Shown: positions 22,647 through 63,502, counted from the stretch's first letter. The stretch is 64,000 nt of DNA from Minisyncoccia bacterium (GCA_049303835.1 JBAQNN010000001.1:1762-65761); one strand, 5' to 3'. Notes: generated by a model from the letters alone, not told the origin. Translations and numbers: made by a program.

Positions 22647-22720
22647 GCGATCGTAGCTCAACTGGTTAGAGCACTCGCCTGTCACGCGAGAGGTTGGCGG
22701 TTCAAATCCGCTCGGTCGCG
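22647..22720 (+). tRNA. tRNA-Asp (anticodon GTC)
   Basis: Manual fold. Acceptor GCGATCG/CGGTCGC, D-arm GCTC-AACTGGTTA-GAGC, anticodon arm CTCGC-CTGTCAC-GCGAG, T-arm GGCGG-TTCAAAT-CCGCT, discriminator G. Confidence 0.85.
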
Positions 22721-24343
22721 CAACATGAGATTAATTCTCTCAAATGACTTTTGAGCTTTACTGCCATTAGCTTTTTCCAGTTCCCACCCTGCGATAGCGG
22801 CCTCAATGGTATTCTTCTCTTTTGCAATCGGTTTTAGCCATTTCATACTGTCAATACTGAGTATTTTGTCTTTTACCACGCAGTTCCCACCCAGAGCTAA
22901 AAATATTTCTTTTTTAGTTTGAATGTCGCCTGCAATGAATCGTTCTCTGGCTGTTGAAGCAAAATTAAACGTCTTTTCAGTTAATTCTAGCCACTTATCA
23001 GCTCTGTTTTCTGTCTCACGAGCATTTTGTCTGAGTATTGCAATCTGCCCTTTTAGTTTCGTTTTTTCACTCAAAAACTGCTCATCATCAATGAGGTCTC
23101 GGTATCGCATTTGCGTTAATCGATCCAGTTGGCTTTGTGTTTCGTCAAGAGTTTTTTGTTGGGTGTTGGCTACTGCTGTTCTATCGCTGATTTCCTGATC
23201 ATTACTTCTTTTGATTATATCTATGGCCCAGTCTCTGAATTCGGGAGTAATGGTAATTTTTTCAAGTTCAGTTTTTATCTGACCTTCTAGCGATTTGCCG
23301 GTAGTGTAGTTATTTTGGCCACACTTACTACCCTTGTTTCTTCGCATACAATAATAATATTCGAAGGTGGCAAGCTTGCCAGTGCTTTTGATAATTTTCG
23401 TTTTTACAATCGCCGTCATACTTCCACCGCATTCACCGCAACGAATACAGCCAGTGAAAGCATGTTGATGCTTTTGAGGACGAGGCTTGCCTTTTTTGCC
23501 TAGGATTATCTGCGCTTTGTCGAATTCTTCCAGTGTGATCATCGGCTTATGGGTTCCTTCGTGCCATTCTCCTCGATATTTAAACATTCCAGTATAAAAG
23601 GCATTGGAAAAAAGCTCAAAGATACTACTGTGTCCGATTGGACCTTCGCCTCTTTTCTTTGTCTTTCGTGTTCTGAAACCCCAGACATTATTCATCATTT
23701 CAAGTATCTGAGTGGGGGAGTAGGCTTCAGAAAGAAGCATGTCCCAGGCTTTTCTGACTAAATCGAAACGATCTGGATCTACCTTGATGTAATTCTCGCC
23801 TCTGTTTTCGAATTTAGTATTTAAGTAGCCTAGTGGCGCAAGAAGCGGAGCCAGCCCTTTTGCAATCTTGCTGTTCACGCCTCTTCTGACATTTTTCTTC
23901 ATGTCTCGGATAAACTGATTAGCAGATCCAGTTTCAACACTGAGAATAAGGGCATTGTCATCTGGCAAATACTCTCGGCTCATTGTTTGGATTGATTTAA
24001 CAACTTCTTCTTGAAGTAACCATTGAATTGTCCCGCCGTCTACCGGATTGCGTGATAGTCGATTAATTTCCCAACACAAAATACCATCTGCTTCACCCGT
24101 CTTGATTCTTCGTATCATATCTTCAAAAACTTTACGCTTGAATGGTGCTTTTGCTGATTTTGATTCAAAAAGAATATCAACAATGTTAAGACCTTCATCC
24201 TTTGCCAAAATCTTTAAACTATTTATTTGATCGTCGATAGACTGGACCTGCCTTTCCGATGATTCGGAACTTTTTCTAGCATACAGGAAATATTTAATTT
24301 TACTAATTTCATTTTTCATATTATTTTCGATTAAACTTAACAT
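22682..24343 (-). CDS. large serine recombinase (phage-integrase-type resolvase/invertase family)
   Basis: N-terminal 'YLYARKSSESSERQVQSIDDQ' (catalytic Ser context Y-x-R-x-S), recombinase domain, zinc ribbon 'CIRCGECGG...YYYCMRRNKGSKCG', C-terminal coiled-coil. The last 13 codons are antisense to tRNA-Asp positions 22682-22720. Confidence 0.85.
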   Translation of the reverse strand: MLSLIENNMKNEISKIKYFLYARKSSESSERQVQSIDDQINSLKILAKDEGLNIVDILFESKSAKAPFKRKVFEDMIRRIKTGEADGILCWEINRLSRNPVDGGTIQWLLQEEVVKSIQTMSREYLPDDNALILSVETGSANQFIRDMKKNVRRGVNSKIAKGLAPLLAPLGYLNTKFENRGENYIKVDPDRFDLVRKAWDMLLSEAYSPTQILEMMNNVWGFRTRKTKKRGEGPIGHSSIFELFSNAFYTGMFKYRGEWHEGTHKPMITLEEFDKAQIILGKKGKPRPQKHQHAFTGCIRCGECGGSMTAIVKTKIIKSTGKLATFEYYYCMRRNKGSKCGQNNYTTGKSLEGQIKTELEKITITPEFRDWAIDIIKRSNDQEISDRTAVANTQQKTLDETQSQLDRLTQMRYRDLIDDEQFLSEKTKLKGQIAILRQNARETENRADKWLELTEKTFNFASTARERFIAGDIQTKKEIFLALGGNCVVKDKILSIDSMKWLKPIAKEKNTIEAAIAGWELEKANGSKAQKSFERINLMLRDRADLNRQPLA

Positions 24344-24370: not shown

Positions 24371-26365
24371 CTAGAAAGGCAAATCTTTCTGCTCCGGTGG
24401 TTGTTCTGGTAATTTTGGGGGAGTATTATCAACAACCTTTTTATCTTTTTCGACCTCTAGACCCAAACTGTCAATAAAACTATCAAGTCTAGTTTTAGGA
24501 GTATCCCCAAGATGCCTTGCTTGTTCCAAGGCGCCCACTTCTTTAAGCTGGGCATCTTCGGTGTTGAGGGCACCTTCGGGAAGTTTCCACTCCCAAAAAC
24601 CGTCTTTAAATGAAGAAGATTTTTTTGATTTAATGCCTAATTTTCCACGAGCATCTCTCAATGGTTTCGAGGTAATGCCAATTCTTTGAGCTTCCTTGAT
24701 CGCTTCGTCTGCCTTGGCTGGTCCTTCCGCTAAAAGATCAATCAAAAAATTGACAGCTTCATCGGTGGCAGTGTGTTGCTCTGTTGATTGAGAGAACGCA
24801 AGAGCTTCTTCCGTTGTAATTTCTACTGGTTCAGATTCCCAGGCAATTACGGGTTGTCCATTTTCTGCTTCAACAATAGAATAAGCAAGTCCAGTTTTAT
24901 CTTTTGCGATATTGTTTTTCAAAGGCATCAACAATCGACGCTCTGGATTTTCTTTGTCCTTCGTAACTATATAAGCAGTTCGGACAGCAGCGGTAAAGGC
25001 TAGTGAACCCATAACTCGATACGATGCATTACCTCCACTGTTTTTGTTAAGATGACTTACTAGAACAATCGCGACTTTGTGTTTTGATGCTAGTTCTGCT
25101 AAAGGTGCCAGTAGGCCTCGTATATCAGAATTATTATTACTATCTGCGCTATCCAAATACGCAGATATTGGATCAATAATAACTAGCTTACAATCTGGTA
25201 GGCTAGATAATAAATCTCCAAGCGTTGCGATGTCGCGCTTGAATGAAAACATATGCTGAGTTGATTCACTTTCAGAATCTATTATCTCTTCCTGTATTGC
25301 TTCCACTACGTGAATACGAGCACAGTCAGCCCCTGCTGCTTCAAGACGGGGCTTAATTGTATCCGCTGGATCATCCTCTGCCGATATCAATATTATGTCT
25401 CCAGTTGGAGGTATTGATTGATCAACTGGCCAAGCGTAACCTTTAGAAACATGAGCTGCCAAAGTGGCAGTAACTAGGCTTTTTCCAAGTCCTGGATCTC
25501 CTGCAACCATAGTAAGTTTTCCAAGAGCTATTCGTCCCTGCCATAACCAGCTAATCGGGACCGACTGTATATCAGTAAAGCATTTTACTATGGCTTTACC
25601 TTTACTATATTTTACCTGCGATGTATTTCTTGCTTGTATTTTGTTACTTTGAACATGCAGTCTTTTAATGCTGTCCCAAGTACTCCTTAGTTCTCTGATT
25701 GCAAGAGGTTTTGGATTTTTAGTATTCCAGATTTGCAATTGTTCCCAACCTAAAATCTCCCACAATTCTGAATCCGTAGAACTTAGAATCTTGCCTGCCA
25801 TAGAGGCCGCTGTGTCGTTTCTGGAGCCTTCAGCGACACCATTTTTACCTAATAACCACTTCTTTTCGATCTTTTCTTCTGCATTTGCTGTTTTGGTAAT
25901 CCAAGTTGGCCACTCCGAAAAATCTGAATCAGACGGGGATATTTGCCACTCGTACTCTCCCTTGTCACTTACAGATGGAGCAGCTAAAACATAACCGCCG
26001 TCTCCGCGAATATCTGTTAACTCTTTAACTCTTGTGCCATTTGGAACCTCGTAACCAGGGTGTTTGTAGTAGAGGTGAATCCCATCGCCTCCTGTTTTTG
26101 CTGTAACGGTTGGAGGATAGCCTTGACTGTTTCCACCCTTTTCGATGTCCACCACAACTATGCCAGAAATCTTTCCTGTCACTATTGCAATATTCATCGC
26201 TGGATATTTTTCAATCCACTCCTTAATTTCCTCCGGAGTTGCTCGTTTGTTTTGATACTCCTTCCAGTTGATTAATGGTTTCTTGTCTGCACCGACTGGA
26301 ATCACCGAAAATCCTCTTGCCTCATAATCTAACGCTGAATCTAAAACATTTTTCATATTTTCCAT
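24371..26365 (-). CDS. bifunctional primase-polymerase (Prim-Pol N-terminal domain) fused to AAA_25/RepA-like P-loop ATPase
   Basis: 'RGFSVIPVGADKKPLINWKEYQ' and 'VVVDIEKGG' in the Prim-Pol domain. 'LTMVAGDPGLGKSLVTATLAAH' is a Walker A, with 'ILISAEDD' downstream. Confidence 0.75.
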   Translation of the reverse strand: MENMKNVLDSALDYEARGFSVIPVGADKKPLINWKEYQNKRATPEEIKEWIEKYPAMNIAIVTGKISGIVVVDIEKGGNSQGYPPTVTAKTGGDGIHLYYKHPGYEVPNGTRVKELTDIRGDGGYVLAAPSVSDKGEYEWQISPSDSDFSEWPTWITKTANAEEKIEKKWLLGKNGVAEGSRNDTAASMAGKILSSTDSELWEILGWEQLQIWNTKNPKPLAIRELRSTWDSIKRLHVQSNKIQARNTSQVKYSKGKAIVKCFTDIQSVPISWLWQGRIALGKLTMVAGDPGLGKSLVTATLAAHVSKGYAWPVDQSIPPTGDIILISAEDDPADTIKPRLEAAGADCARIHVVEAIQEEIIDSESESTQHMFSFKRDIATLGDLLSSLPDCKLVIIDPISAYLDSADSNNNSDIRGLLAPLAELASKHKVAIVLVSHLNKNSGGNASYRVMGSLAFTAAVRTAYIVTKDKENPERRLLMPLKNNIAKDKTGLAYSIVEAENGQPVIAWESEPVEITTEEALAFSQSTEQHTATDEAVNFLIDLLAEGPAKADEAIKEAQRIGITSKPLRDARGKLGIKSKKSSSFKDGFWEWKLPEGALNTEDAQLKEVGALEQARHLGDTPKTRLDSFIDSLGLEVEKDKKVVDNTPPKLPEQPPEQKDLPF

Positions 26366-26387: not shown

Positions 26388-26918
26388 TTATAAGTTTCTA
26401 TCCTCCGGTTCGACATAGGACATACCTATCAGCCGGAATAACTCTGCTTCTTCGCGCAGTTCATATTTCTCGCCGTTACGGTATAAGTAACCGCCCGAAC
26501 TATTAAATCCATTTCGGACCCAACCATTCGCTAAAACGTAGTGGCTGTAATCCGCTGAGCCAGTTCTAATTGCCAACACAGATCCCCAATTTCCTTCTTC
26601 TGCAAAGAACAAATCGAGTTTTATTCCTTCCGGTAAAACGCGCTGAGTGTATTTACAGGGAAGTTCTCCTTTAATTTTCTTCCATTTATTAACGACACTA
26701 GCGATGCCATCTTCCAAAAGCCCCACTGAATATGGTTTTGGAATTGCCACGATTTCTATATCTTTGACCTCTGACTTTTGTCTTCGAATACTTCCAGCAA
26801 TTTCAGCGCGTATGCAATACGGCTTCAACTGCTCTAACACTTTTAACGCTATTGCTTGCGCCTCCGCTAAGGGATAGCGTTTTTCTACTACTTCATTTTT
26901 TACATTTTCTTGTTTCAT
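26388..26918 (-). CDS. minimal DNA polymerase beta-like (PolX family) nucleotidyltransferase, palm plus thumb only
   Basis: 'AGSIRRQKSEVKDIEIV' is the GS-x-RR...D-x-D/E Pol-beta signature. Third carboxylate in 'IKLDLFF'. C-terminus 'YVEPEDRNL' resembles the Pol-beta C-terminus '...REPKDRSE'. 176 aa. Confidence 0.65.
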   Translation of the reverse strand: MKQENVKNEVVEKRYPLAEAQAIALKVLEQLKPYCIRAEIAGSIRRQKSEVKDIEIVAIPKPYSVGLLEDGIASVVNKWKKIKGELPCKYTQRVLPEGIKLDLFFAEEGNWGSVLAIRTGSADYSHYVLANGWVRNGFNSSGGYLYRNGEKYELREEAELFRLIGMSYVEPEDRNL

Positions 26919-28484: not shown

Positions 28485-29558
28485 TTGCTGCAGATTTTTT
28501 TGTTTCTTGGTATAATATACATAATGCCTAAAATATTAACTACAATTGATCTTTTTGCCGGTATCGGCGGAATCCGTAAAGGATTTGAACGAGCCGGTTT
28601 TGAAACACTCTATGCTTCGGACATAGATAAAGGGTGCAAGGTCACTTATGATGCAAATTATAAAACTACGCCTCTTACTATGGAGAGCATAATTGATATC
28701 GTTCCAAAAACTCTCCCTGATTTTGATGTTTTGCTGTCGGGATTCCCATGCCAATCTTTTTCTATGGCTGGTGGTAAGGCAGGTTTTGCGGACAAGGGAA
28801 GGGGGGATCTCTTTTTTGAAATAATGAAAGTTCTTGAAGTAAAAAAGCCACGTGTGGTATTTCTTGAAAACGTCAAACATCTAGCTAAGCATGATCATGG
28901 CCGTACTTTTATTGTCATAAAAGAGCTTCTTGAGCGTTGTGGTTATTATGTAAAATTTGCAACGATGAACAGTGCTGAATATGGTAATGTTCCGCAAAAT
29001 AGGGACCGTATATATATTGTAGGATTTTTGGATCCAAAGGCTCGTGATGCTTTTGAATTTCCATCTAAAAAAATTCTTAAAAAATCAACTGCTGATTTGT
29101 TGGAAACAGATGTGCTAGAAAAATATTATTATAAAAAAGGCTGGCTATACGATCGCATAAAAGGGCTAGGTATGAAGCAGGGGCTTGTGTATCAATGGCG
29201 TAGGGTTTATTTAAGAGAAAACAAAAGCGGACTCTGTTCTACCTTGACCGCAAATATGGGAATGGGGGGTCATAATGTTCCTTTGATCCGAGACAAAAAA
29301 GGATTGAGGCGACTTACTCCCCGCGAATGTGCTCGTTTACAGGGATTTCCTGATAGTTTTAAATTGCCAGCATCGTTGCCGGATTCTCGTTTATACAAAC
29401 AGATTGGTAATTCTGTAACAATTCCCGTAGTGGAGCGTATCGCTCACAACATTAGCCTTGCGTTAGAGACAGTTGAGAAAACACATAAAGAATACATAAA
29501 TAAAAAATATATTATGAAGCGACACTCTGTAAAACAATTAGCTGAGTTTACTGTTTAA
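28485..29558 (+). CDS. DNA (cytosine-5)-methyltransferase
   Basis: Motif I 'LFAGIGGIRKGF', motif IV 'GFPCQSFSMAG', motif VI 'ENVKHL', motif X 'QIGNSVTIPV'. Confidence 0.9.
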   Translation: MLQIFLFLGIIYIMPKILTTIDLFAGIGGIRKGFERAGFETLYASDIDKGCKVTYDANYKTTPLTMESIIDIVPKTLPDFDVLLSGFPCQSFSMAGGKAGFADKGRGDLFFEIMKVLEVKKPRVVFLENVKHLAKHDHGRTFIVIKELLERCGYYVKFATMNSAEYGNVPQNRDRIYIVGFLDPKARDAFEFPSKKILKKSTADLLETDVLEKYYYKKGWLYDRIKGLGMKQGLVYQWRRVYLRENKSGLCSTLTANMGMGGHNVPLIRDKKGLRRLTPRECARLQGFPDSFKLPASLPDSRLYKQIGNSVTIPVVERIAHNISLALETVEKTHKEYINKKYIMKRHSVKQLAEFTV

Positions 29559-29635
29559 TTTATTAACACATGTCACTTGACAAGTGAGTAGTATGGTATA
29601 AACTATTGTAATAGTATCATGCCCTTGCTAAGGGT

Positions 29636-29869
29636 GTGGTGTATGATAACATGAAAACATTAAAACGCGCTAGATTTGAACGCCTTGCGGTATATCGCAC
29701 GAATGAAGTCCTAAAACGCTTAAAGGTTCTTGGAAATTGTGGTAATCGTAGCGCATATGAATATTCCGAGGAGGAAATAAATAAAATATTTACTGAAATA
29801 GAGCGACACGTTAAAGATGCACGTGCAAAATTTCATTTCCCAAAAGGTCGTAAAGAATTTCATCTATAA
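29636..29869 (+). CDS. small hypothetical protein (77 aa) immediately upstream of the GHKL ATPase gene
   Basis: ORF ends 2 nt before the next start. Basic/helical sequence, possible regulator. Confidence 0.35.
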   Translation: MVYDNMKTLKRARFERLAVYRTNEVLKRLKVLGNCGNRSAYEYSEEEINKIFTEIERHVKDARAKFHFPKGRKEFHL

Positions 29870-29871
29870 AT

Positions 29872-31770
29872 ATGGCCAATACTTCAAACAAAAATGAAAA
29901 CAATAAGATTTTAAGTTGGCATTTCCCAGCTCTTGATCACGCTGACACAGAAGGGTTGAATGATCCACTTCTTGGATACTTTAGTGGTGACTACAATCAA
30001 AATGTTGCAAGAGAAGTAATACAGAATTCTATAGATGCACGAAACGACAGTGAACATCCGGTGTTGGTTAAATTCGAAAAACTAAAGTTGCCCACAGCAG
30101 AAATTCCAGGAATAAAAGAGTTGCAAGAGCGAATAAAAATTTGTTTAGATCAAGCCAAAAGTGAAAAAAATGATAAGGCAGAGAAACATTATCATGAAGC
30201 ATTAGAAGCTACTAAGGCTTCTCATACTGTCATTCTTAGAGCTTCCGACTACAATACTTCTGGCTTGGATGGTAATGATGATGATAAAAAGGGTAAATGG
30301 CATCGCCTTGTGAAAGCAGTTGGAGAAAATCAACTCACAGGTGCTGGTGGCGGATCATATGGAATTGGAAAGGGTGCGCCATTTGTTGCTTCACTTATGA
30401 GGACAGTTTATTACTCAACAAAAAATTCATTAGGAGAAACCATATTCCAAGGAAAAGCACGACTTCTTAGTCATCAATGGGAAAGTAAAGATTATCGTGG
30501 AGTAGGTTCTTTTGGTATTGGTGGTTATAAGTCAGTAAGAGATGTAAATGATATACCGAATTTTTTTATACGAAATGAACAAGGAACAGATATTAATATT
30601 ATTGGATACAGCCCATCATTAGCGTGGAAGGATGAACTTGCAAAATCAGTTTTAGATAATTTTTGGATGGCTATACATGCTGGTGATCTTGAGGTTATTA
30701 TAAAAGAAGGGTTGATTGATATCCACATTGATCGAGCTAGCCTACTTGGTCTTTTAGAAAAATACAGCCGAAATGATGGTCTTATTTATTATCGTACTGT
30801 AATTAATCCAACGCGAACATTTAAAAAACAACTCCCGTTACTTGGTGCTTGCACTTATTATGTGCGTATTGAAGAAAAATTTCCTAGAGAAACAGTGTAT
30901 ATGCGTCGCCCTAAAATGTGTGTAAATAAATGGCGTTTTAATAAAACACTTCATGAACCTCACGCTGGTGTATTTATTTGTGAGGATGTAGAAGGAAGTA
31001 AATTATTACGAAACCTTGAACCACCAGAACATGATGATTGGAAAGCAACACTAGAACCCCTACAAGGTAAAGAAATTTTGGATATTGTAAGGTCGTGGAT
31101 AAAAGATAGTTTGCTTGAATTGGCGGCAGACGAAAGTAATGATTCGGAAGAAGTTCCCGGACTAGAACAGTTTTTGCCGTATGATGAAGATTCTGAAAAT
31201 ACATCTCTAAATAATAAAAATAAAAGTAAACCCACAGGTTCAGCAGAATTGGATGAAGGACCACTTGAAACTGGAGCTGAACGTGAGGAAGAAGTTGATG
31301 AGGTAGAAGACTATGTTAGAAAGCCATCAAGCCAAAGACCTTCAGGTGGTAGTGGACCAGGATTTAGCCATGGTGGTGGCAGTAATGGTGGAAGTGGTGG
31401 TGGTGATAGTATTGGTGGAGACAATGACGACAGGAACGAAAATATTAAACGAATTGATACATCTTCCGTAAAATTTAGAATAATTTACACTGGACAGTCA
31501 AAAAAGGGAAATGCAGAATATTGCCTAGTTGTTCAACCTCTTGCTGATGTAGAAGGGGGCATAGAAATTGTCGCTCTTGGTAATGATTCTACGGTATATC
31601 CAATTCCACTTGCTTATGTTGAACCGTGGGACAAAAGTAATGATTCTTTTCGTGCTGAGGGGTCCTATATAAACGGATTAAATTTTAAAAAAGGAAAAAC
31701 CCAACGCATTAAAATAGGTACAATGTCTAGGTCGAGGTATGCACTAGGAATAGAAAATTATGAAAGCTAA
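29872..31770 (+). CDS. GHKL-superfamily (MORC/MutL/Hsp90-like) ATPase with unknown C-terminal region containing an acidic/Gly-rich low-complexity linker
   Basis: Bergerat N-box 'AREVIQNSIDA' (ExxxNSxDA) near the N-terminus and a G2-box-like 'TGAGGGSYGIGKGAPFVAS'. The 3' end overlaps the next gene by 11 nt. Confidence 0.65.
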   Translation: MANTSNKNENNKILSWHFPALDHADTEGLNDPLLGYFSGDYNQNVAREVIQNSIDARNDSEHPVLVKFEKLKLPTAEIPGIKELQERIKICLDQAKSEKNDKAEKHYHEALEATKASHTVILRASDYNTSGLDGNDDDKKGKWHRLVKAVGENQLTGAGGGSYGIGKGAPFVASLMRTVYYSTKNSLGETIFQGKARLLSHQWESKDYRGVGSFGIGGYKSVRDVNDIPNFFIRNEQGTDINIIGYSPSLAWKDELAKSVLDNFWMAIHAGDLEVIIKEGLIDIHIDRASLLGLLEKYSRNDGLIYYRTVINPTRTFKKQLPLLGACTYYVRIEEKFPRETVYMRRPKMCVNKWRFNKTLHEPHAGVFICEDVEGSKLLRNLEPPEHDDWKATLEPLQGKEILDIVRSWIKDSLLELAADESNDSEEVPGLEQFLPYDEDSENTSLNNKNKSKPTGSAELDEGPLETGAEREEEVDEVEDYVRKPSSQRPSGGSGPGFSHGGGSNGGSGGGDSIGGDNDDRNENIKRIDTSSVKFRIIYTGQSKKGNAEYCLVVQPLADVEGGIEIVALGNDSTVYPIPLAYVEPWDKSNDSFRAEGSYINGLNFKKGKTQRIKIGTMSRSRYALGIENYES

Positions 31771-32590
31771 AAACATATCATATCCATATCCTGTTCTAGG
31801 CAATGACGATGATGTAGAGGGTAAACTCGACGCTTCTTTTAAACACATGCTCAAGCGAGATAATATAATTCTTAAATCTCGTTTTTCACTGAAAAATAAA
31901 ACTCTCGAAAAACTCATAAAAGAAAAAAAAGCTATATATACAGTGGAAGTAGAATGTCCTAGTACTTTTTTTAGAAAACTTTTTTCTACTTTTGAGCCAG
32001 AGGCAGATTTTGTATTACCTTCAACTATAGTACGAGAACATGTTTCGGTAGGATTTTTTATTCGTGCTACCGACAATATACCAAAATATGAAATAGTTGG
32101 TTGTCATTCTGATTATAAGGGATTTAAGTTTGATGTAGGACCTGGAGATGTTTTGGCGCTTGGTGGATTTACGTCTTTTATTGCAGAAAAAGATTTTGAT
32201 CCAATGCAACCCGCTGTTTCGTCTCTTATTGCAATTAAGCAAGGGAATAATGATACAGGACCCATGGAAATAGATTATTCACAAGACAAAATTTTTATTA
32301 AACTTTCTCATAAAGACCATAAAAACTATTCGCAAATAAAAGGACAAGCAACTATTGCCGGGGTTCTGCATTCTTCTATTGTGTTGCCTGTTTTAACTGA
32401 TGCTATTCGTTTAGTTAATGAAAATAATGAAGAAACACAGGATAGACACTGGTTTCGACGTCTTGAGGTGATTTTACGACAGCAGGAACTTTCAGATGAA
32501 GATCCACTTATTAGCTCACAGAAGATTTTGCGTAGTCCAATAGAACGTTGTTTAGCAGGTCTCGTCGAAACAACCGAAGCGGATGAATAA
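31760..32590 (+). CDS. hypothetical protein (276 aa), translationally coupled to the GHKL ATPase
   Basis: Overlapping start/stop with the upstream gene. No motif recognised. Confidence 0.45.
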   Translation: MKAKNISYPYPVLGNDDDVEGKLDASFKHMLKRDNIILKSRFSLKNKTLEKLIKEKKAIYTVEVECPSTFFRKLFSTFEPEADFVLPSTIVREHVSVGFFIRATDNIPKYEIVGCHSDYKGFKFDVGPGDVLALGGFTSFIAEKDFDPMQPAVSSLIAIKQGNNDTGPMEIDYSQDKIFIKLSHKDHKNYSQIKGQATIAGVLHSSIVLPVLTDAIRLVNENNEETQDRHWFRRLEVILRQQELSDEDPLISSQKILRSPIERCLAGLVETTEADE

Positions 32591-32599
32591 AAAACAAAT

Positions 32600-33391
32600 A
32601 TGACTAATCAAAATATTTTCAAACGGATGTATGTAGCAGAACTTCGAGATAAAATACGAAGCGGAGAATCTTTGTGTGATTATTTTAAAAAAGATGTTGA
32701 ATACCCCATAGAGACTTTAATTCAATCTACAATTAAAACAGATCCAGAGAAACTTAAACTAAAATATCGTGGTAAAAACGAATCAGCAAGTAACGATCTA
32801 GAAAACGCCATAGCTTTATATGAAGCATTTCCAGACTTAACTGAAACACAGGCTTCAGACCCTAGACTTTGGACATATCTTACCCACGTTACCCTGCGAG
32901 ATTATGTATTTGCTAGATGGCCGATCGGAGGTAGTTGTGAACAGATAAAAACTGATAGCAAACAGCAAGCTACTACCATTGATTTTATACTAAGTCACTG
33001 GTTTGCTTCTGGTGGCAACGATCGTTTACTCCGTCGTAACGCAGCAGCTCGTTTATGGTGGCCAGTACATCTCACACATGCTCCATGGTTACGTGAACCA
33101 GAATTTTTTGCAGATTTAAAAACAAATGACCCGTATCGTTTCACAAAAATATTACTTTCAATGGAAAGTATTTATGCAGAGGTGCTTGAACGGGGATTAG
33201 GTCGCGACAACCGTATACTCATAACAGTCTTGGAATTTTTTGAAGCAAACAAAAGTATTAAACGAGAGCAAATTCGTAGTTTTATGAAAGAACTAAATCT
33301 TTTTCTTTCTGTTAGAAATCTCTCTTTATTGTCGAGGAAAGAGATGAAGGAAACAATATTTGATATCGGTAACACAACTCTAAAAGAATAA
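32600..33391 (+). CDS. hypothetical protein (263 aa), Trp/Arg-rich
   Basis: 9-nt gap after the previous gene, same operon. 'RLWTYLTHVTLRDYVFARW' conserved-looking block. No motif recognised. Confidence 0.45.
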   Translation: MTNQNIFKRMYVAELRDKIRSGESLCDYFKKDVEYPIETLIQSTIKTDPEKLKLKYRGKNESASNDLENAIALYEAFPDLTETQASDPRLWTYLTHVTLRDYVFARWPIGGSCEQIKTDSKQQATTIDFILSHWFASGGNDRLLRRNAAARLWWPVHLTHAPWLREPEFFADLKTNDPYRFTKILLSMESIYAEVLERGLGRDNRILITVLEFFEANKSIKREQIRSFMKELNLFLSVRNLSLLSRKEMKETIFDIGNTTLKE

Positions 33392-33467: not shown

Positions 33468-33701
33468 TTAGGACCAATTACCAACTGAATAATCATAGAT
33501 AGCATCGGTAGCTTCTATCGCTGTCATATTTTCCAATTGAGACAAACGAAGTTCTTGTTCCTCTTCTTGGAAGTTAGCACAGATTATTTCTGTAAGCGTG
33601 TTTCGTTGTCTGTCCGAAATCATTTTTTCCTCACCTAAATACTTAAGAGGCCAATAGTTTCGTGGCAACTCAAAGTCAGCTGTGATTGTTTTTGTAATCA
33701 T
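33468..33701 (-). CDS. conserved small protein (77 aa), copy 1 of element right-end module
   Basis: Homologous to 61773..62012 ('MISDRQRNTLTEII' vs 'MISEGQRRTLTNLI'). Confidence 0.55.
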   Translation of the reverse strand: MITKTITADFELPRNYWPLKYLGEEKMISDRQRNTLTEIICANFQEEEQELRLSQLENMTAIEATDAIYDYSVGNWS

Positions 33702-33715
33702 AATTTTATGTTAAG

Positions 33716-34258
33716 TTAGTAATTTTTCACAAAAGATTGAATTTTTTCAGAGGCCTCATCCTTTGTGAGCAGATTAATTTGCGCCTCCCAATATTTGCGT
33801 TTACTTTCGTCAAAAACATTTGAGCGAATGAGTTCTCGGAGGTAATTTTTTTGACGATCGGAAGCGAGGTCAACTCCAATTGTTTCTTGAGTTAAAACTT
33901 CACCATTATCTTTAAGATAAAGAACGTCTAATGCTTTGACTGATTGAATAATGGAGTCAATAATTGAAGCGTTGAGCGTATAACGAACTGACCTATCTAC
34001 CCACTTATTAATTTTGCTTAAGATATTGCTACCTCTACCAATACCAAGAACTTGCGCTCCTTTCCGGATAGTGCATTTATAAGCAATGACGGGACCAGGT
34101 AGATCTTTAAGTTGAAGTACGGTTTCTTTGTCCTCCTCGATTAATAGTTCAAGGTTTAACTTGCACTCGTTTGCCTTTATGGCTTCTTGAACTGGATCTA
34201 GTTTCTGTTTCGTTTGAAATGGAGATGGAATCTCATTTTTATACATTGTTTTATTCAT
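33716..34258 (-). CDS. conserved hypothetical protein (180 aa), copy 1 of element right-end module
   Basis: Homologous to 62036..62707 ('AYKCTIRKGAQVLGIGRGSNI' vs 'AYRCILKKNGVLCGEGRGSASI'). Confidence 0.55.
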   Translation of the reverse strand: MNKTMYKNEIPSPFQTKQKLDPVQEAIKANECKLNLELLIEEDKETVLQLKDLPGPVIAYKCTIRKGAQVLGIGRGSNILSKINKWVDRSVRYTLNASIIDSIIQSVKALDVLYLKDNGEVLTQETIGVDLASDRQKNYLRELIRSNVFDESKRKYWEAQINLLTKDEASEKIQSFVKNY

Positions 34259-34425
34259 TGTTTTTTAATTTAGTGATAAGAATTTTATTTCGGGAATATT
34301 GGACTTTTATTTTTGTGCCTTCTGGAAACCCGAACTTTTCAAGAAGATGATTAGCAATAACAAGTTTACTAGTCATAGGCCTATTACCTCGATATTGATA
34401 ACTTACTGTCATTAATCGTTCCATC

Positions 34426-34749
34426 TTATTTTTTTGCTAATTCAGTGACTTGTCTATAATGGAATAGATAAACACTCTTGATTCTTTTAACAATTTTAGT
34501 CGGATCCTTTTTGTCACGTGTTTCTAACACAACAAAAGAACGGATAGCATGCTCACCTTTTTTAGGGATCATATTAAATTTCAAAATCCAATTTTTCGCC
34601 GTAAGAGTTGAGCGTAACGGATCGTAGTTACGTAATTCACTTTTGCCCCACCTGCGGCAAATTTCATCCTCAACTATAGATCTCGTTTTGGATGACCCAC
34701 TAAAATTACTTATCTCAGGACCTTCTAATATTTCTTTTATAGATTTCAT
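34426..34749 (-). CDS. conserved hypothetical protein (107 aa), copy 1 of element right-end module
   Basis: Homologous to 62893..63207 ('MKSIKEILEGPEISNFSGSSKTR' vs 'MIQSIKEILAGPKVSNWHGSEKTR'). Confidence 0.55.
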   Translation of the reverse strand: MKSIKEILEGPEISNFSGSSKTRSIVEDEICRRWGKSELRNYDPLRSTLTAKNWILKFNMIPKKGEHAIRSFVVLETRDKKDPTKIVKRIKSVYLFHYRQVTELAKK

Positions 34750-35010
34750 AACCTTAAATAGTTAACTAATAATTCATGACGACCAACATGTTGTGAAGCT
34801 TTTGTTATTAATAATTGCTTCACTTAAATAGTTTTGAATATTTTGTTATTAGGTATTTTAAATAAAGGGTATGGGGGGGTTGTTGATTTGTGGATGTTTA
34901 GGATTGGCTGGATGTAGTGAAACGTACCCGTTTATGTTTTTTGGTGGAATTTTGGATTTCAAAACAAAAGGCTCAAAAAAAATTCTAAAAAAAATTTCAA
35001 CTTTTTGTCA

Positions 35011-35039
35011 TTGCTAAACTTTTTTTTAGGTGTATAGTT
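35011..35039 (+). promoter_or_regulatory. conserved extended -10 promoter (TTGCTA, 16 nt, TG-TATAGT) driving the non-coding RNA candidate
   Basis: Matches the paralogous promoter at 63468-63495 (TTGCTT, 16 nt, TG-TATAAT). Confidence 0.5.
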
Positions 35040-35045
35040 TTGATA

Positions 35046-35200
35046 TAACTTAATAACGAAGAGAGTAGCCTAAACCTTTAGAAATAAAGGCATGGTGAAG
35101 AAAACATTTCACAGTATCAAGCTCCTAGTCAGAGCACTGTGAAATGTCGTATTCCGAAAGGTCTACGGGTCTCGCAAGAGATCGCTGGCTAGGAGCTTTA
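35046..35200 (+). ncRNA. candidate structured non-coding RNA (copy 1), unknown family
   Basis: Conserved 5' block 'AGTAGCCTAAACCTTTAGAAATAAAGGCATGGTGAAG'. Hairpin CATTTCACAGT/ACTGTGAAATG, long-range GCTCCTAGTCAG/CTGGCTAGGAGC, GNRA hairpin TCTC-GCAA-GAGA. No ORF. Its paralogue at 63.5 kb shows compensatory base changes. Confidence 0.5.
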
Positions 35201-35262
35201 TGTTCTCGGTTGGCGAACTTGAAAGCTTGACATTTTATTTAATTATAGTATAATTGATTATT

Positions 35263-38200
35263 ATGAAATTAAAAAAGTTGAGTTCATTTGTCGTAGTTGT
35301 TTTAACCTTTTCCATTGCGCTTGGCAGTTTTAACTCACCTGTCTTTGCATATGAAAAAAGTAGTGTTAATTTACAGCAAGTTAAAACCTTATCTGATAAT
35401 AGTGAAACTATTTTAAATAAATTAGATTCTATATCTAAGCCAACTAGCACCCTTTCACAAGATTTATCTAATAAAAAACAAAATTTATCAGAATCCAAAA
35501 AGAAACTAGGTACAGATTTATTGAGATTGATCGATAGTAATTTCTTATTACCAAATCAAAATCGTACCCAGGTTATATCTGAAATGAAAGGATTAAAACA
35601 GTTTGTTGCAAGTGCTGATTCTGTAAAAACTGTAGACAAAAGAGTAACCAACAAAATACATAATGATTTAGTTTATGTTTATGTAAATCTTCAACCAACA
35701 ACTTCAACTTTCGTAATTGATTCTATTGCATGGAAAGTAACTGATAGAGATGAAAAAAATCATTTAGCAGTTGCTTTAGTCGAGGTTAATAAATTAGAAA
35801 CACTTGCTTCGTTAAAGGGAGTAAAATCAGTTAGTTTAGTTTTGCCACCGGTTACTAGAAGTGGCTCTGTTGTTACAGAAGGAGATTTAATTCATCAAAC
35901 TGATGATGTTCGAAATACTTATTCTCAAGGAGGAGCTGGAATGAAAATTGGAGTTATTTCTGACGGGGTTGATAATCTCGCTTCTGCACAAACTAGTGGT
36001 GATTTGCCACCAGCTGTAACGGTTCTTAGTAATTTTGAGGGAGGTGATGAAGGTACTGCGATGTTAGAGATTATTCACGATATGGTACCAAATGCCAGTC
36101 TTTATTTTCATGATGCTGGTAGTAATGTGATAGCCTTTAACTCCGCTATTGACGCTTTAATTGCGGCAGGTGCCAATGTTATTGTTGATGATGTTGGCTG
36201 GATAACCGAACCATTTTTTGAAGATGGGACAGTAGCTTCGCATGTTGCCTCTGTGTTGGCGGTAAATAATATTGTTTATGTTTCATCTGCTGGGAATAAC
36301 GCCGAAGAACACTATCAAGGAATTTTTAATGACAATGGAAGTGGATGGCATGATTTTAGTGCAGGTTTGAATCAGGTTCTTTTGGTCTCTGTGCCCAACG
36401 GAGGTTCTATAATACCTATTTTGCAGTGGAATGATAGTTTTGGATCGTCTTCAAATGATTACGATTTATATTTAGTCAACCAATCTTCAGGAGCCCTTTT
36501 GGATGCAAGTGAAAGCGTCCAGAACGGTGATGACGACCCTTTTGAAGGAGTTATATATACAAATATAAGCGGAAGCACAATTCCAGTGGGTATTTATGTT
36601 AATAAATTTTCTGGTGTTGCAAAAACCCTAGAATTATTTATAAATCCAAAAGATGGTGCAGTTGTTAGTCCAACCAATATAACGGGCGTAGACTCTATTT
36701 TTGGTCATGCAGCAGTACCAGGAGTAATAACAGTAGGAGCTATTAATGCTAACGATCCTGGTAATGATACGATAGAACCTTTTTCTTCGCAGGGTCCTGT
36801 AACTATAATTGGTCAAGCTCAAAGAGCAAAAACAGACATAACAGGTATTGATTGTGTATCAACTTCTGCAGCAATACCTATTGCAACAGGATTACATCCT
36901 TTTTGTGGCACAAGTGCGGCTGCCCCTGCGGTGGCTGCTATTGTTGCTCAATTATGGGGACAATACCCTACAGCAACGGGTACTCAAATAAAAAATCACA
37001 TATTAAATTCAGCAGTAGAATTAGGTACAGCTGGGACCGATTCTATCTTTGGACACGGACGAGCTGATTCGCTTCTTTCTTTTCAAACTGGTCCGACAAT
37101 TGCTTCATTTAATTTTACAACCCCAGCAGTCACAGGTGTTATTAATGAAAATGCAAAAACAATTTCACTAACTGTACCTTACGGAACTAATATCACTGCC
37201 CTTGTACCAACGATTGCAGTTTCTGCTGGGACTTCAGTTGGTCCACTTTCTGGTGTAGCTCAAGATTTTTCTAGTCCTGTAATTTATACAGCCACTTCTG
37301 TGGATGGTTTAATTAAGTCTTATACAGTAACAGTTACAGTCACTCCTAATCCTGCAAAAGCAATCACTTCTTTTGATTTTACAGCTCCAACCGCAACAGG
37401 AGTTATTGATGAGAGTGCTAAAACGATTTCTTTGACAGTACCTTTTGGAACTAATGTAACTGCACTTGTTCCAACAATAGAAATTACTGGAGCATCAATT
37501 GTTCCTAATACTGGAATAGCTAATAATTTTACAACTCTACAAACTTATACAGTTACTGCTTTGGATAGTTCAACTCAAGCTTATGTAGTAACTGTAGCTT
37601 TTGATACTGATCCAGACATTGCCAAAGTGGCTACTGACAAAGCTGCACTAGTGGATAGTTTAATTCAAGGGGCAAACGCTGATTTATCAAATATAACAAC
37701 AACACTTACAAGTCCATTACCAGCTCTTGGAACTATTAATGGTTCAACAATAACATGGGCATCAAATACTCCTTCTGTTGTTTCAAATGATGGACAAACA
37801 GTAGTGAGACCAGCTTTTGGAAATGCAAATGCCACAGTAATTTTAACCGCAACAATAACTAAAGGTGTTGTAACCGATACAAAAACATTTACACTAACAG
37901 TGCTTGCAGAAACACTAAACCCAGATATTGCATTTGTTGCTTCTGACAAAGCATCTTTAGTAGATGATTCTATTAAAGGAGGAAATTCTGATTTATCAAA
38001 TATTGAAGTAGCTCTTACAGATCCATTACCATCACTTGGAGCTAATGGTTCAACTATCACTTGGTTATCAAGTGATTCAGCTGTTGTTTCAAACAATGGA
38101 CAGACAATCAATAGGCCAGCTTTTGCAGATGGAAATGCAACTATTACTATGACTGCCACTATCACAAAAGGTGTCATTACTGATACGAAAGTATTCACAT

Positions 38201-42078: not shown

Positions 42079-42299
42079 ACGAATGCAATACTTTTGCGAT
42101 TTTTTTAGAAGCTGTTCGTGCGGTGGGGGATTTTCTAGTAATCCACAGTTGCCCTTGCTTAATGGACTTTTCATAATATTTTTGCTATATTATAGATGTG
42201 CTTGTGGGGCGTCAGCCCTATTCGGCTAATTCATAAGCCGAAGGCAGGCATAACAAAGCTACCACCTTAATCGGTGGTATTTTTGTTTCTAGTTCATAT

Positions 42300-42779
42300 T
42301 TAGTCTTCATCCGGACTACCTTTCATCGTTGTATAAAACTTAGCATCCCGATATTTGTTTGTTGTCCACGCAGGCACAATACTCCAAAAGTGCATCGCTC
42401 CACCATCTCCAATTTGTCTCAATATTACTTTAATTTTTCTGCTATCAATAATGGCAATGATACCCCAATATCTTACAGGTTTTGATTTTCTAATTCTTTT
42501 CTTGTGGCTTTTAACTTCAAATTCTTTCAGAGTTTCTTCAAATTCCTGATGAGTGGTAGAGAGCTTAACCAATTTTACAGCGAGGTGCAAAAGCTTAAAG
42601 CGCAACATTTGAGACGGTCTTTCTCTTTCAGATCGTGAGCCTTTGAAAATGATATGATTGAAGCCCTCTGAGTTGAAATAGATGTCCTGGTTTAGAGCCG
42701 GGGAAAAGGCTTTGTGAACATTGTTATAAAAATTTTGCGCGTCTTCTTTTAGTTTTTCGTAATTGGATAAATCTTCCAT
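42300..42779 (-). CDS. hypothetical protein (159 aa)
   Basis: ORF adjacent to the second serine recombinase. No motif. Confidence 0.4.
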   Translation of the reverse strand: MEDLSNYEKLKEDAQNFYNNVHKAFSPALNQDIYFNSEGFNHIIFKGSRSERERPSQMLRFKLLHLAVKLVKLSTTHQEFEETLKEFEVKSHKKRIRKSKPVRYWGIIAIIDSRKIKVILRQIGDGGAMHFWSIVPAWTTNKYRDAKFYTTMKGSPDED

Positions 42780-42788
42780 AAAAATATA

Positions 42789-44468
42789 TTAGCATATTTG
42801 CGCCGATGATTGAAAGGTCGGAATATAGATTGTAGTATCATTTACAAGCTCAAACGCAGTTCTAACATCGTCCAATAGTCCGCGCAACAGTGAACGAAGA
42901 TGAGGAAAGTCATAAATCGTCTTTTGTTTACAAGCTAGTTCTGGTTCAGTACTAGCCAACTGCTCTCTTAGTGAAGAGTAGGCTTTTTGAATGTGGAAAT
43001 ACCATTCGAAGGCTTTAATATTGACTATTTTGTCTTTTATCTCTCGGTTCATACCCAGACTCTTGATGATTTCTTTTCGGGTTCTTTTGTCCCCATTTTT
43101 AAGAGCAATCAAGGCATAAGTAGAATAATAGAATGCTTTCTCAGTTAATTCCATAAGATTTTCATTCTTGTCAGCTTCAACCTCAGTTAATTGGGTTTTT
43201 AGGCTATTTATTGTCTTGTCTAACTCTGCTCTAGATTCTTTGAATTCATCATCTGAAAGTAACCCCCTAGATGCCATTAGGATCAACTTCTTTAATTCTT
43301 CCTGCTTAGTTTCTACGGTCTTTGATACATTTTCTTTTACATCTTTCTCCGTTACCGTTTCTAGAACATTATTGTCTTTCAGTACTTCAAGTGTCCAACT
43401 TAAGAAAGCAGAATCAATTGTATATTTTTGGATTTCAGCCTCTATTTGTTCCTCTACCTTGGTTTCGTTAATATTGTATTTCTGGCTGCAGTAAACTACA
43501 CTCTTTTTATGACCACAGAGATAAAATACATAAACTTTTGTTTCTTTAGTACTTTTTATAAATTTAATCTTCTCAATCCCAACGAATGAACGATTGCACT
43601 CGCCACACATAAAAGTTCCACAACCATAGGCAAATTCATGGGTTTTTGCTCTTGGTTTACCATGTTCTTTAAGGAGCGTCTGTACGCGGTCAAATTCTGC
43701 CATAGTTATCATTGGTTTATGATCTCCTTTATACATTTTACCTTTATACATAAAGTATCCAGTGTAAAACATATTGGTAAACATGCCGTAAGCGCTAGTA
43801 TAGCCAATCTTTCCTCCACCAACTTTTTTCTTTTTGGGAGTAAGTAAGCCCCACTCTTTTGTAGCAATCTCTCGCACTTGGGGGACACTATAGTTTCCAG
43901 TTAGTAATAAATCCCACATTTTACGAACAAGAGGGAATCGTTCTACATCTTCCATTATTTTATTTTCTCCTCGTGTTGCTAATTTTGTATTATAATAACC
44001 AACTGGTGCTAGGCATGGCATTCTCCCCATACTTAATTTATCGCCTAATCCACGTTTTACATCAACACCAAGTTTGGAAGAATAATATTGTGAATCTGAA
44101 AGAGCGTTTTGTAGGTGTTTTATTCCATCTGGTGTATTTTCAAAAGTGTAACTTACAAATTTTAAATCTTTAATTAGATTTTTTCTTATAGAATAGGTAA
44201 TATCTCCAGCTTCTTTTTCATTTCTTGAGAGGCGATCTGGGTGCCAAGCTATTATTCCATGCAACTCACCACTTAATGCCATATTAAGCATTCTTACAAA
44301 TTCTGGTCTATTGTTGGGTTCAAAGGCACTACGACTTTCTTCAAACCAGACAATGTCGAAGTCTGGAAATTTATTTTTGATTGCTTCCTTTTGCGAGGCA
44401 ATTGAAAGCGCTTGTTTTTCTTTTGCTTCACTCGATTTACGTATATACCCTCCATATTTATATTTCAT
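42789..44468 (-). CDS. large serine recombinase (paralogue of 22682..24343)
   Basis: 'GGYIRKSSEAKEKQALSIASQ' catalytic Ser motif. Zinc ribbon 'CGTFMCGECNRSF...FYLCGHKKSVVYCSQ'. Aligns along its length with the element-1 recombinase. Confidence 0.85.
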   Translation of the reverse strand: MKYKYGGYIRKSSEAKEKQALSIASQKEAIKNKFPDFDIVWFEESRSAFEPNNRPEFVRMLNMALSGELHGIIAWHPDRLSRNEKEAGDITYSIRKNLIKDLKFVSYTFENTPDGIKHLQNALSDSQYYSSKLGVDVKRGLGDKLSMGRMPCLAPVGYYNTKLATRGENKIMEDVERFPLVRKMWDLLLTGNYSVPQVREIATKEWGLLTPKKKKVGGGKIGYTSAYGMFTNMFYTGYFMYKGKMYKGDHKPMITMAEFDRVQTLLKEHGKPRAKTHEFAYGCGTFMCGECNRSFVGIEKIKFIKSTKETKVYVFYLCGHKKSVVYCSQKYNINETKVEEQIEAEIQKYTIDSAFLSWTLEVLKDNNVLETVTEKDVKENVSKTVETKQEELKKLILMASRGLLSDDEFKESRAELDKTINSLKTQLTEVEADKNENLMELTEKAFYYSTYALIALKNGDKRTRKEIIKSLGMNREIKDKIVNIKAFEWYFHIQKAYSSLREQLASTEPELACKQKTIYDFPHLRSLLRGLLDDVRTAFELVNDTTIYIPTFQSSAQIC

Positions 44469-62012: not shown

Positions 62013-62035
62013 GTTTTTTATTAAGTTAATAATAA

Positions 62036-62707: not shown

Positions 62708-62892
62708 AAGTTTGAATTAAGTTTAATAATAAGAGAGCCTTTAAGATATTCAACTGTAAATTTATCTCCAATCGAAAAACCACTCTCGGTTAGAAAGTGG
62801 TTTGCGATGACTATCTTGGGAACTGTTGAAAGATCTCCTCGAATTCCATGTCTATGCTGGTAATAAATCTTCATTTCTTTTCTCATAAAGGT

Positions 62893-63495: not shown

Positions 63496-63502
63496 TGAAG
63501 TA

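Follow-up and report, generated by a model that had tools for sequence, protein, structure and literature searches.

Several described RNAs offer points of comparison for LOOT (Rfam RF03000), a structured RNA that occurs twice in the 64,000-nucleotide (nt) stretch of DNA analyzed here, which comes from a Minisyncoccia bacterium (GCA_049303835.1 JBAQNN010000001.1:1762-65761) and is called the window below, with positions counted from its first nucleotide. The c4 (immI) RNA of phages P1 and P7 and the CI RNA of phage P4 are leader-encoded antisense immunity RNAs with repeated complementary boxes, and the 11-nt GAAA tetraloop receptor occurs in group I and group II introns and in RNase P. To our knowledge, very little experimental genetics exists for the candidate phyla radiation (CPR), and almost no regulatory RNAs are known from it. 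The c4 RNA acts on the operon by which it is itself encoded (PMC8198154).

LOOT stems from the Weinberg/Breaker motif collection (PMC5737381, PMC7779021) and is listed in Rfam 14 as a "metagenomic-based" RNA (PMC7779021). The paper describing CaCoFold gives it about 43 base pairs (bp) in six helices, with an unusual 28 cross-covariations (PMC7657543), and two covarying pairs were added to it in Rfam 15 (PMC11701678). The main text of the LOOT discovery paper does not discuss it, and in the literature that we searched we found neither a function nor a genomic context for this RNA. We tentatively propose that the "rightward" transcription unit of CPR mobile elements may begin with LOOT as its structured 5' leader, which would at the same time be released as a terminated small RNA.

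Two LOOT RNAs in the window

A preliminary description of the window had reported, downstream of two paralogous sets of small genes, a conserved non-coding block that matched no known RNA family. When the whole window was scanned with Rfam at the gathering threshold, a check which that description had itself suggested for both blocks, LOOT was found in each, over the full length of the model (1 to 121 of 121): copy 1 lies at 35067-35183 on the plus strand (82.2 bits, E 5.8e-14) and copy 2 at 63520-63641 on the plus strand (87.5 bits, E 3.3e-15), the gathering score being 46.4. The statement that the block matches no known RNA family was therefore wrong, and its reading as a new RNA falls with it; the family is already known, and the window adds two members. 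Since both copies match the Rfam model over its full length, they are not chance matches, and we regard it as almost certain that both blocks are LOOT RNA genes, that is, genes for a structured RNA of Patescibacteria/CPR without an assigned function. The scan of the window returned LOOT and tRNAs only, and the c4 family models had no match. The core of the window RNA shows no difference from Rfam LOOT, with P1, P2, P3, and P4 all shared; the sequence pair CCUAAaC...GCAUGG in P1 and the GAAA loop on P3 are present in both copies.

The conserved layout as first described, comprising the block, the promoters, the complementary arms, the GCAA hairpins, and the AAAGGCTCAAAAAAA string, was found in place throughout. 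The shared block AGTAGCCTAAACCTTTAG.AA.AAAGGCATGGTGAA lies at 35064-35100 and 63517-63553. The hairpin with compensatory arms corresponds to the outer part of P2, here named P2a, and its arms differ between the copies yet pair in each, as CATTTCACAGT/ACTGTGAAATG in copy 1 (35105-35115/35136-35146) and CTCGTCAGAGT/ACTCTGACGAG in copy 2 (63559-63569/63594-63604), while the GCAA hairpins at 35168-35183 and 63626-63641 are P4. The remaining parts of copy 1, which scores 76.8 bits with our own model R1, are P1 (35067-35097, with the CCUAAAC/GCAUGG internal loop), the apical part of P2 (35116-35135), and P3 (35148-35167, with the GAAA loop); those of copy 2 are P1 (63520-63550), apical P2 (63570-63593), and P3 (63606-63625). 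Folding energies compared with those of shuffled sequences gave z scores of -4.2 for the copy 1 region and -6.7 for the copy 2 region, and the intergenic regions of the two sets have a mean column identity of 77%, versus 25 to 43% for the flanking left-hand proteins.

Upstream of copy 1, a consensus scan detected a promoter at 35011-35038 on the plus strand (TTGCTA-16 nt-TATAGT, 9/12 matches), whereas the counterpart of copy 2 at 63468-63495 on the plus strand (TTGCTT-16 nt-TATAAT), recognized in the sequence by alignment to copy 1, falls below the threshold of that scan because its -35 box matches the consensus in only three of six positions. The label "extended -10" does not apply, since the TG abuts the -10 hexamer directly and no canonical TGn is formed. 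Judging by the position of the -10 box, transcription would begin shortly after it, and a probable 5' leader outside the Rfam model would occupy 35045-35066 in copy 1 (ATAACTTAATAA...) and 63502-63519 in copy 2 (ACAATTTAATAAATCAGT), both on the plus strand. Upstream of the -35 box, the AAAGGCTCAAAAAAA block lies at 34967-34982 and, in the alignment of the copies, its counterpart at 63423-63437. An open reading frame (ORF) of 62 amino acids (aa) in copy 2 (63545-63733) is, as had been noted, not conserved and recurs only in two near-identical loci, L133 and L151. A protein-coding reading of the block was dropped, as this ORF is confined to near-identical loci and absent from copy 1.

Homologues and covariation of the core

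An initial search pattern, GCCTAAACN{9,18}GCATGG, with 14 specified bases, listed mostly chance matches and was replaced by one with about 20 informative bases (18 fixed and two R positions). The scan of one genome per GTDB species with this more specific pattern yielded 78 loci, of which 65 were recognized as LOOT by a covariance model that combined the sequence of copy 2 with the Rfam structure; the same model recognized one viral contig, which was confirmed by Rfam, and both window copies. The hosts are nearly all Patescibacteria (Saccharibacteria, Nomurabacteria, Paceibacterota, Microgenomates, and Gottesman-, Woese-, Magasanik-, and Taylorbacteria), in agreement with the lineage given for LOOT in Rfam, the CPR. 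A contig labelled Bathyarchaeota (L127, QYYE01000136.1) carries LOOT together with neighbors that cluster with those of the Woesebacteria/Microgenomates loci L153 and L134, and is probably a mis-binned CPR sequence.

Across 66 distinct homologues, 96.5% of the cells of the core structure are paired and 33 of its 39 pairs show double changes, a level reached in none of 500 shuffles, which bears out the earlier view of a structured RNA under selection for base pairing. The weakest element is the inner P2 helix of the Rfam model (88.7% paired, many gaps). P2a, by comparison, is a hypervariable helix of 11 bp with 96.5% pairing and double changes in 10 of 11 pairs, and it is nearly free of wobble pairs (681 Watson-Crick, 6 G.U, and 9 A.C; G.U 0.8%), whereas P3, P4, and the long helix introduced below carry 11 to 17% G.U. 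The ratio of G.U to A.C is 74:2 in P3, 41:4 in P4, and 206:5 in the long helix. The loop of P3 is GAAA in 64 of 64 sequences, and that of P4 is a GNRA or UUCG tetraloop in 50 of 58 (GCAA 19, UUCG 17, GAAA 12, GUAA 2).

A longer RNA with a long-range helix

The Rfam model of LOOT ends at P4 and does not comprise the conserved 5' leader, the 3' strand of a long helix, and the U-run that we find among the homologues. On the 5' side, a -10-like hexamer is present in 65 of 67 distinct upstream regions, most often 24 to 26 nt before the first nucleotide of LOOT, and this fixed distance supports the dedicated promoter that had been proposed for the RNA; a leader motif resembling ACAAYUKAAUA occurs in 47 of the 67 loci. 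On the 3' side, about 60 of 63 distinct homologues continue directly after P4 with 13 to 21 nt that match the apical part of P2 as its complement and run into a U-tract, examples of the two strands being UAAAGAACCCAUCAUGGGG / ACCCGUGGUGGGCUUUUUG, AAGCUCCUAGUCAG / CUGGCUAGGAGCUU, and GGACCGUCCGUCCAGC / GCUGGCGGGCGGCC. Most homologues carry GGGCUUUUUG.

Both window copies have such a tail on the plus strand. In copy 1 (35184-35204), GCTGGCTAGGAGC pairs with 35119-35132 (AAGCTCCTAGTCAG) and is followed by TTTATGTT; the long helix has 14 bp, with UUUAUGUU after it, the duplex is predicted at -25.2 kcal/mol, and R2, a covariance model that includes the long helix, gives 77.5 bits over 35067-35202. 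The tail of copy 1 can alternatively pair with 35203-35214, as a hairpin in the minimum free energy (MFE) fold. In copy 2 (63642-63662), ACCTATGTGGTAGGTTTTTTG pairs with 63570-63589 over 20 bp and, in the manner of an intrinsic terminator, has U6 at its end; the 20-bp helix is contained in the MFE fold (duplex -28.6 kcal/mol), and R2 gives 186.5 bits.

Several lines of evidence point to the long helix as a property of the family. R2 outscores the first model for most loci, and on the R2 alignment all 20 pairs of the helix have changed on both sides, with 93.6% of the cells paired; one column is a conserved A.C mismatch. Outside that column the helix holds 206 G.U pairs versus 5 A.C, which argues for selection on the plus-strand RNA. 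In an alignment-free test, the apical region paired with its own tail at a mean of -24.7 kcal/mol and with non-self tails at -14.1 kcal/mol, and the own tail ranked first of 63 in 33 cases. Finally, the same helix was predicted by MAFFT and RNAalifold from 22 diverse extended sequences, with no model fitting.

Past the U-run, many loci (for example L193, L152, L179, and L194) carry a GGAUUUAUUA-like motif at a distance of 10 to 45 nt, immediately upstream of the start codon and in many cases with a small hairpin after it; the motif is partly complementary to the UAAUAA of the conserved 5' leader. It is possible that the 5' leader and this post-terminator AUUUAUUA-like motif form a long-range closing helix in read-through transcripts, for which no covariation test is feasible because both partners are conserved and AT-rich.

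Predicted helix competition and tertiary contact

The apical loop closed by P2a has 20 to 24 nt, which the long helix uses almost completely. As a duplex of 17 to 21 bp spans about 50 Å and the ends of the loop lie about 18 Å apart, the full long helix and P2a should not be able to coexist, and we infer on these steric grounds that they are mutually exclusive. In MFE folds of the terminated RNA, the long helix is present in 20 of 63 sequences, among them both window copies, and P2a in 42 of 63, so that the two states are nearly isoenergetic in nested folding. The inner P2 hairpin may be an alternative partner of the same nucleotides as the long helix, and their competition may underlie the 28 cross-covariations reported for LOOT (PMC7657543).

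In its arrangement, LOOT resembles attenuators and riboswitch platforms, which likewise sit in a 5' untranslated region (UTR) and, as predicted for LOOT, form two exclusive helices, one of which ends in a U-tract. It differs from them in that their terminator has a short loop, whereas the LOOT helix encloses about 55 nt with two hairpins, and in that no ligand or common regulon is evident for LOOT. With regard to tertiary structure, the internal loop of P1, CCUAAA(C)/(G)CAUGG, closely resembles the 11-nt GAAA tetraloop receptor (CCUAAG/UAUGG), and a GAAA loop is found on P3; the G.U closing pair of the canonical receptor is replaced by A.C in LOOT, and L208, a homologue found through a protein rather than through the RNA, has ...UAUGG. 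By analogy with the known receptor, the P3 GAAA loop likely docks on the P1 internal loop.

Genomic position of LOOT

Relative to LOOT, taken as the plus strand at every locus, the first ORF upstream points the other way in 49 of 62 cases (median gap 163 nt), and the first ORF downstream has the same orientation in 57 of 61, with its start at a median of 69 nt past P4 and about 45 nt past the U-run. This short distance leaves no room for a separate promoter in most loci. The preliminary description had named, as an outcome that would count against an RNA of its own, that the block be only a leader of the downstream gene: the same-strand ORF in 57 of 61 loci agrees with a leader position, but the word "only" does not fit, since this leader covaries and is highly structured.

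The commonest neighbor is a large serine recombinase (LSR), present in 39 of 67 loci by ORF clustering; by tblastn (E < 1e-5), 32 of 66 LOOT loci have an LSR match, versus 3 of 137 control loci. In at least nine loci the LSR is divergent from LOOT and its start codon lies 142 to 177 nt away. Other recurrent neighbors are terminase-like, LexA-like, ParB/RadC-methylase, and PrimPol-helicase genes. The carriage of the RNA by mobile elements, as initially proposed, is thus supported by the LSR beside about half of the loci and by the other recurrent element genes. From these positions, LOOT would thus mark the head of a "rightward" unit at the divergent junction of CPR prophages or integrative elements.

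The window copies fit the divergent plan, except that a cassette of small genes takes the place of the recombinase as leftward neighbor. To the right of copy 1 lies an S8-peptidase/dockerin operon, and to the right of copy 2 a gene for a small membrane protein.

Additional copies of the pairing segments

In 9 of 63 distinct loci, the 5' strand of P2a recurs downstream of LOOT with at most one mismatch, the rate for non-self strands being 0.2%. These copies lie 35 to 56 nt after P4, with one outlier at 145 nt, and eight of the nine end 1 to 6 nt before the ATG of the downstream ORF. The recurring sequence is the complement of the P2a 3' strand and, in about 14% of loci, lies over the ribosome-binding region of the next gene. 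A copy covering the ribosome-binding site (RBS), ...AAAAACCGCTAAAGTTTATG, is also present in L208 to L211, which were found independently through homologues of a cassette protein (protein C, see below). As to the tail, 38 of 63 loci, versus 26% of controls, allow it to pair with a segment just past the U-run with an energy of -12 kcal/mol or better, and in window copy 1 this pairing reaches -13.6 kcal/mol. Elsewhere in the window there are no extra P2a arms or apical 12-mers.

An upstream copy, an antisense segment, and a downstream copy at the RBS together give the layout of the c4/CI leader-encoded immunity RNAs. Like these, LOOT is carried by mobile elements and stands at the head of the operon that would be controlled; two of its segments have a complementary partner on either side, the P2a 3' strand in the P2a 5' strand (upstream) and in D2 at the RBS (downstream), and the tail in the apical strand (upstream) and in D1 (downstream), and the pairing segments are hypervariable, as expected for specificity determinants. 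There is no homology of sequence or structure between the two, LOOT being larger and having a core with a tertiary fold; moreover, a target is found in only about 14% of the LOOT loci and for neither window copy, and the genes downstream of LOOT are cargo rather than anti-repressors.

The neighboring four-gene cassette

The preliminary description had reported three paralogous minus-strand ORFs in the same order beside each RNA copy. Their paralogy holds, whereas the number has to be corrected to four, since a gene of 57/60 aa had been missed. The cassette, designated A to D, encodes proteins of 107, 57, 180, and 77 aa beside copy 1 and of 104, 60, 223, and 79 aa beside copy 2, with BLASTP identities of 41, 40, 25, and 43% and E values of 4e-25, 1e-11, 1e-11, and 4e-18, respectively. 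Gene A (34426-34749, minus strand) has a faint, sub-threshold ArdC-N signal (Pfam, 15.6 versus 22.6 bits). Gene B (34251-34424, minus strand) is SymE/AbrB-like; its two copies score 22.8 and 28.4 bits with Pfam SymE_toxin, below the cut-off of 29, and amount to similarity only. The product of gene C (33716-34258, minus strand) may, by its fold, be akin to single-strand annealing proteins of the Rad52/Sak type, whose hallmark is the beta-beta-beta-alpha core of RAD52, Mgm101, and Sak. Gene D (33468-33701, minus strand) has no family match, and for A, C, and D nothing above threshold was found in Pfam, PHROGs, NCBIfam, PADLOC, and PDB sequence searches. The second cassette, at 61773-63207 on the minus strand, comprises D (61773-62012), C (62036-62707), B (62704-62886), and A (62893-63207). 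Both copies share another conserved intergenic block, with six to seven consecutive G after it, at 34825-34866 and 63284-63323, which recurs in L133, L151, and L204; its probable role is that of a cassette promoter or operator.

Loci collected through relatives of gene C keep the four-gene order, apart from L207, which has an extra ORF and no called gene D. LOOT adjoins the cassette in seven of eight of these loci, which represent three of four distinct contexts and were reached through three protein C homologues; it is divergent and upstream of the cassette in L204 to L206, downstream on the same strand in L208 to L211, and absent in L207. Approached from the RNA side, the cassette is present in only three of 66 loci (L133, L151, and L130) and partially in a fourth (L177), which rules it out as the general partner of LOOT. 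The cassette therefore usually travels with LOOT, and LOOT does not need the cassette.

Elements of the window and their ends

The window holds two integrative elements of the same plan, with their genes on the minus strand in the order LSR, primase-helicase, nucleotidyltransferase, cargo, and cassette, after which LOOT follows on the plus strand, pointing away. The LSR of element 1 (22682-24343, minus strand) has the Pfam domains Resolvase, Recombinase, and Zn_ribbon_recom, and that of element 2 (42789-44468, minus strand) has the same three, the zinc ribbon scoring 24.7 bits against a cut-off of 25.3. A PrimPol/AAA_25 primase-helicase follows in element 1 (24371-26365, minus strand); its counterpart in element 2 (44928-46955) has the AAA_25 match only. 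Beside the primase-helicase lies a small Pol-beta-like nucleotidyltransferase (thumb domain match) at 26388-26918 and 47301-47828. A Pol-beta-like nucleotidyltransferase also recurs in the unrelated LOOT/cassette contigs L208 to L210, near position 12960.

The cargo of element 1 (28485-33391) consists of a C5 cytosine methyltransferase and a complete PADLOC candidate defense system, PDC-M33 A/B/C (E 4e-119, 1e-63, and 6e-36), whose C component corresponds to Pfam DUF6339. Directly downstream of the second LSR, a 159-aa minus-strand ORF (42300-42779) has no family match, and between this ORF and the plus-strand operon beginning after LOOT copy 1 lies a terminator-like hairpin (about 42250-42290). 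At 35227-35265 on the plus strand, a sigma70 consensus promoter (TTGACA-16-TATAAT) ends 8 nt before the ATG (35263) of the gene for a 1,798-aa S8 peptidase/Ig-repeat/dockerin protein, the mRNA of which would be leaderless or nearly so.

The LSR ORF of element 1 overlaps the 3' half of an intact tRNA gene (22647-22720) by 39 nt, which suggests a left junction inside the tRNA gene. On the right, the near-identical LOOT and cassette of L133 (Ca. Nomurabacteria) and L151 (Paceibacterota) allow a comparison with copy 2: DNA identity is 88 to 95% from 61764, at the 3' end of gene D, to 63836 and stops abruptly there (L133:3656, L151:7805), 172 nt past the LOOT terminator, with different and unrelated small membrane-protein genes beyond this point in the window and in L133/L151. 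Position 63836 could be either a cargo-swap junction or an element boundary. The reverse complements of both tails, sought with up to three mismatches across the window, matched only their LOOT-internal partners, and the regions that follow LOOT, when aligned locally in both orientations with those flanking the recombinases, scored no better than shuffles, so that the proposal of an RNA-structured attachment (att) or terminal region found no support. An exact look-up of two host proteins beside the tRNA cluster, made with a view to empty-site relatives, found neither on record. The earlier placement of the cassette and RNA at the right end of the element is likewise not established: across the family, LOOT sits at an internal divergent junction and genes follow it, which favors an internal rather than a terminal position.

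Proposed mechanism and alternative explanations

If LOOT is a leader that also yields a terminated small RNA, its host elements may be serine-recombinase integrative elements and prophages, an assignment that we make just as tentatively, and its mechanism could be as follows. Transcription would start from the conserved sigma70-type promoter, some 20 nt upstream of where the Rfam model begins, and P1, P2 (P2a with a local apical hairpin), P3, and P4 would fold cotranscriptionally, the P3 GAAA loop probably docking into the receptor-like loop of P1. The 3' tail would then compete for apical P2, and the resulting 13- to 21-bp helix, running into the U-tract, would act as an intrinsic terminator and release an RNA of about 155 to 165 nt. 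As the full long helix and the 11-bp P2a are predicted to exclude each other sterically, the RNA would have two states. In the long-helix state the strands of P2a would be freed, and in the subset of loci where the P2a 3' strand is exactly complementary to the RBS region of the next gene, this strand could repress that gene in cis or in trans, following the logic of P1 c4 and P4 CI, with the hypervariable P2a as the specificity determinant. The window copies, with promoter, core, and terminator helix and with no target in 64 kb, would act only as terminated small RNAs or attenuators.

A number of observations weigh against this proposal. A scan for intrinsic terminators reports none in either copy, because the "loop" enclosed by the long helix measures about 55 nt; the U-tract of copy 1 is poor (UUUAUGUU); and L185, like some other loci, keeps the complementarity though its U-run is degenerate (UUCUCU), which suggests that the helix is structural and not merely a terminator. 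A partial pseudoknot, with P2a and 8 to 10 bp of the long helix, could be feasible and would abolish the switch. The RBS copy is absent in about 85% of loci, and for neither window LOOT is there a P2a copy with at most one mismatch in the 64 kb. Downstream products are very diverse cargo (small membrane or secreted proteins, Dam and N6 methyltransferases, proteins of unknown function) and include no lysis/lysogeny regulators; copy 2 has no ORF within 220 nt downstream, and the gene after copy 1 has a perfect consensus promoter of its own. Rfam types the family as sRNA. As regards the alignments, the search pattern forces the P1 motifs, so that their invariance in the set is no independent evidence, and both covariance-model alignments were fitted to the structures under test.

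The main rival of the leader reading, and a somewhat less likely one, is a purely trans-acting structured RNA, compact and protein-binding or forming a ribonucleoprotein, in which the long helix is a closing stem plus terminator and the downstream ORF is incidental. Such an RNA would readily have its own promoter and a terminator-like end, and the invariant GAAA loop, the receptor-like loop of P1, and the conserved purine-rich linker and P3 are hallmarks of a tertiary fold; the window copies without a cis target, the mutually unrelated downstream genes, and the independent consensus promoter after copy 1 point the same way. What it leaves without a ready account is the co-oriented ORF within tens of nucleotides in 57 of 61 loci, usually with no room for a promoter, together with the exact RBS-covering P2a copies in a subset of loci; two covarying helices that should exclude each other are hard to explain by one static fold, and a conserved protein partner is lacking, the LSR being found at about half of the loci and the cassette at few. 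It is unlikely that LOOT is a ligand-binding riboswitch, whose core of P1, linker, and P3 would bind a small molecule and choose between P2a (read-through) and the long helix (termination). The potential 5' UTR position, a terminator-like helix competing with an alternative stem, and highly conserved core nucleotides would suit this model, but the genes downstream of LOOT lack the common function seen in known riboswitch regulons. A tetraloop-receptor contact, rather than a pocket, accounts for most of the conserved nucleotides, the RNA is restricted to mobile elements, and the hypervariable P2a and the RBS copies point to RNA-RNA specificity rather than to a shared ligand.

The frequency of LSR genes (near 32 to 39 of 66 loci, versus 3 of 137 controls) and the at least nine divergent LSR starts at 142 to 177 nt from LOOT bring to mind an RNA partner of the recombinase, i.e., a cofactor, directionality factor, or guide for integration or excision. 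We know of no RNA requirement in large serine recombinases, and a LOOT-LSR partnership would, if true, be the first RNA-dependent serine recombinase system. We hold it to be quite unlikely, given that about 40% of loci lack an LSR in the 8-kb block and the window LSRs are 11 to 20 kb away, that all variable LOOT segments are held in helices with no free guide loop, and that no LOOT segment recurs at element ends. LSRs that are 89% identical carry different P2a sequences, for which reason P2a as an LSR site was also dropped. Very unlikely in our judgment is a DNA-level element, with the P2 palindrome as att site, operator, or initiation signal on single-stranded DNA and the RNA fold as secondary: P2a does lack the wobble bias typical of RNA (681 Watson-Crick, 6 G.U, 9 A.C), as a DNA palindrome would, and the elements encode proteins that handle single-stranded DNA (PrimPol-helicase and, by fold, a Rad52-like protein), but the strong plus-strand G.U bias in P3, P4, and the long helix, the P4 tetraloops, the invariant P3 loop, and the receptor motif speak for RNA, P2 is no consumed attP, as LOOT persists intact in chromosomal and apparently integrated contexts, and element ends show no att-like similarity. 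Most improbable of all is that LOOT regulates the SymE-like cassette protein B or acts as its RNA antitoxin. A SymE/AbrB-like gene does lie 300 to 700 nt from both window copies, and LOOT is adjacent in the seven of eight loci (three of four distinct contexts) reached through protein C homologues; yet gene B falls short of the Pfam cut-off for SymE and LOOT has no antisense relation to it, and among the loci collected through the RNA, only L133, L151, L130, and, partially, L177 have the cassette.

Implications

LOOT belongs to the orphan "sophisticated" RNA motifs for which CPR metagenomes are the only source. The comparison of its loci yields hypotheses that can be tested, namely a longer RNA, two incompatible helices, a position at the head of a transcription unit, and an RBS match in a subset of loci. 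Should the switch or antisense reading prove true, no regulatory RNA system of CPR mobile elements would have been described before LOOT, which would also be a handy marker for finding such elements.

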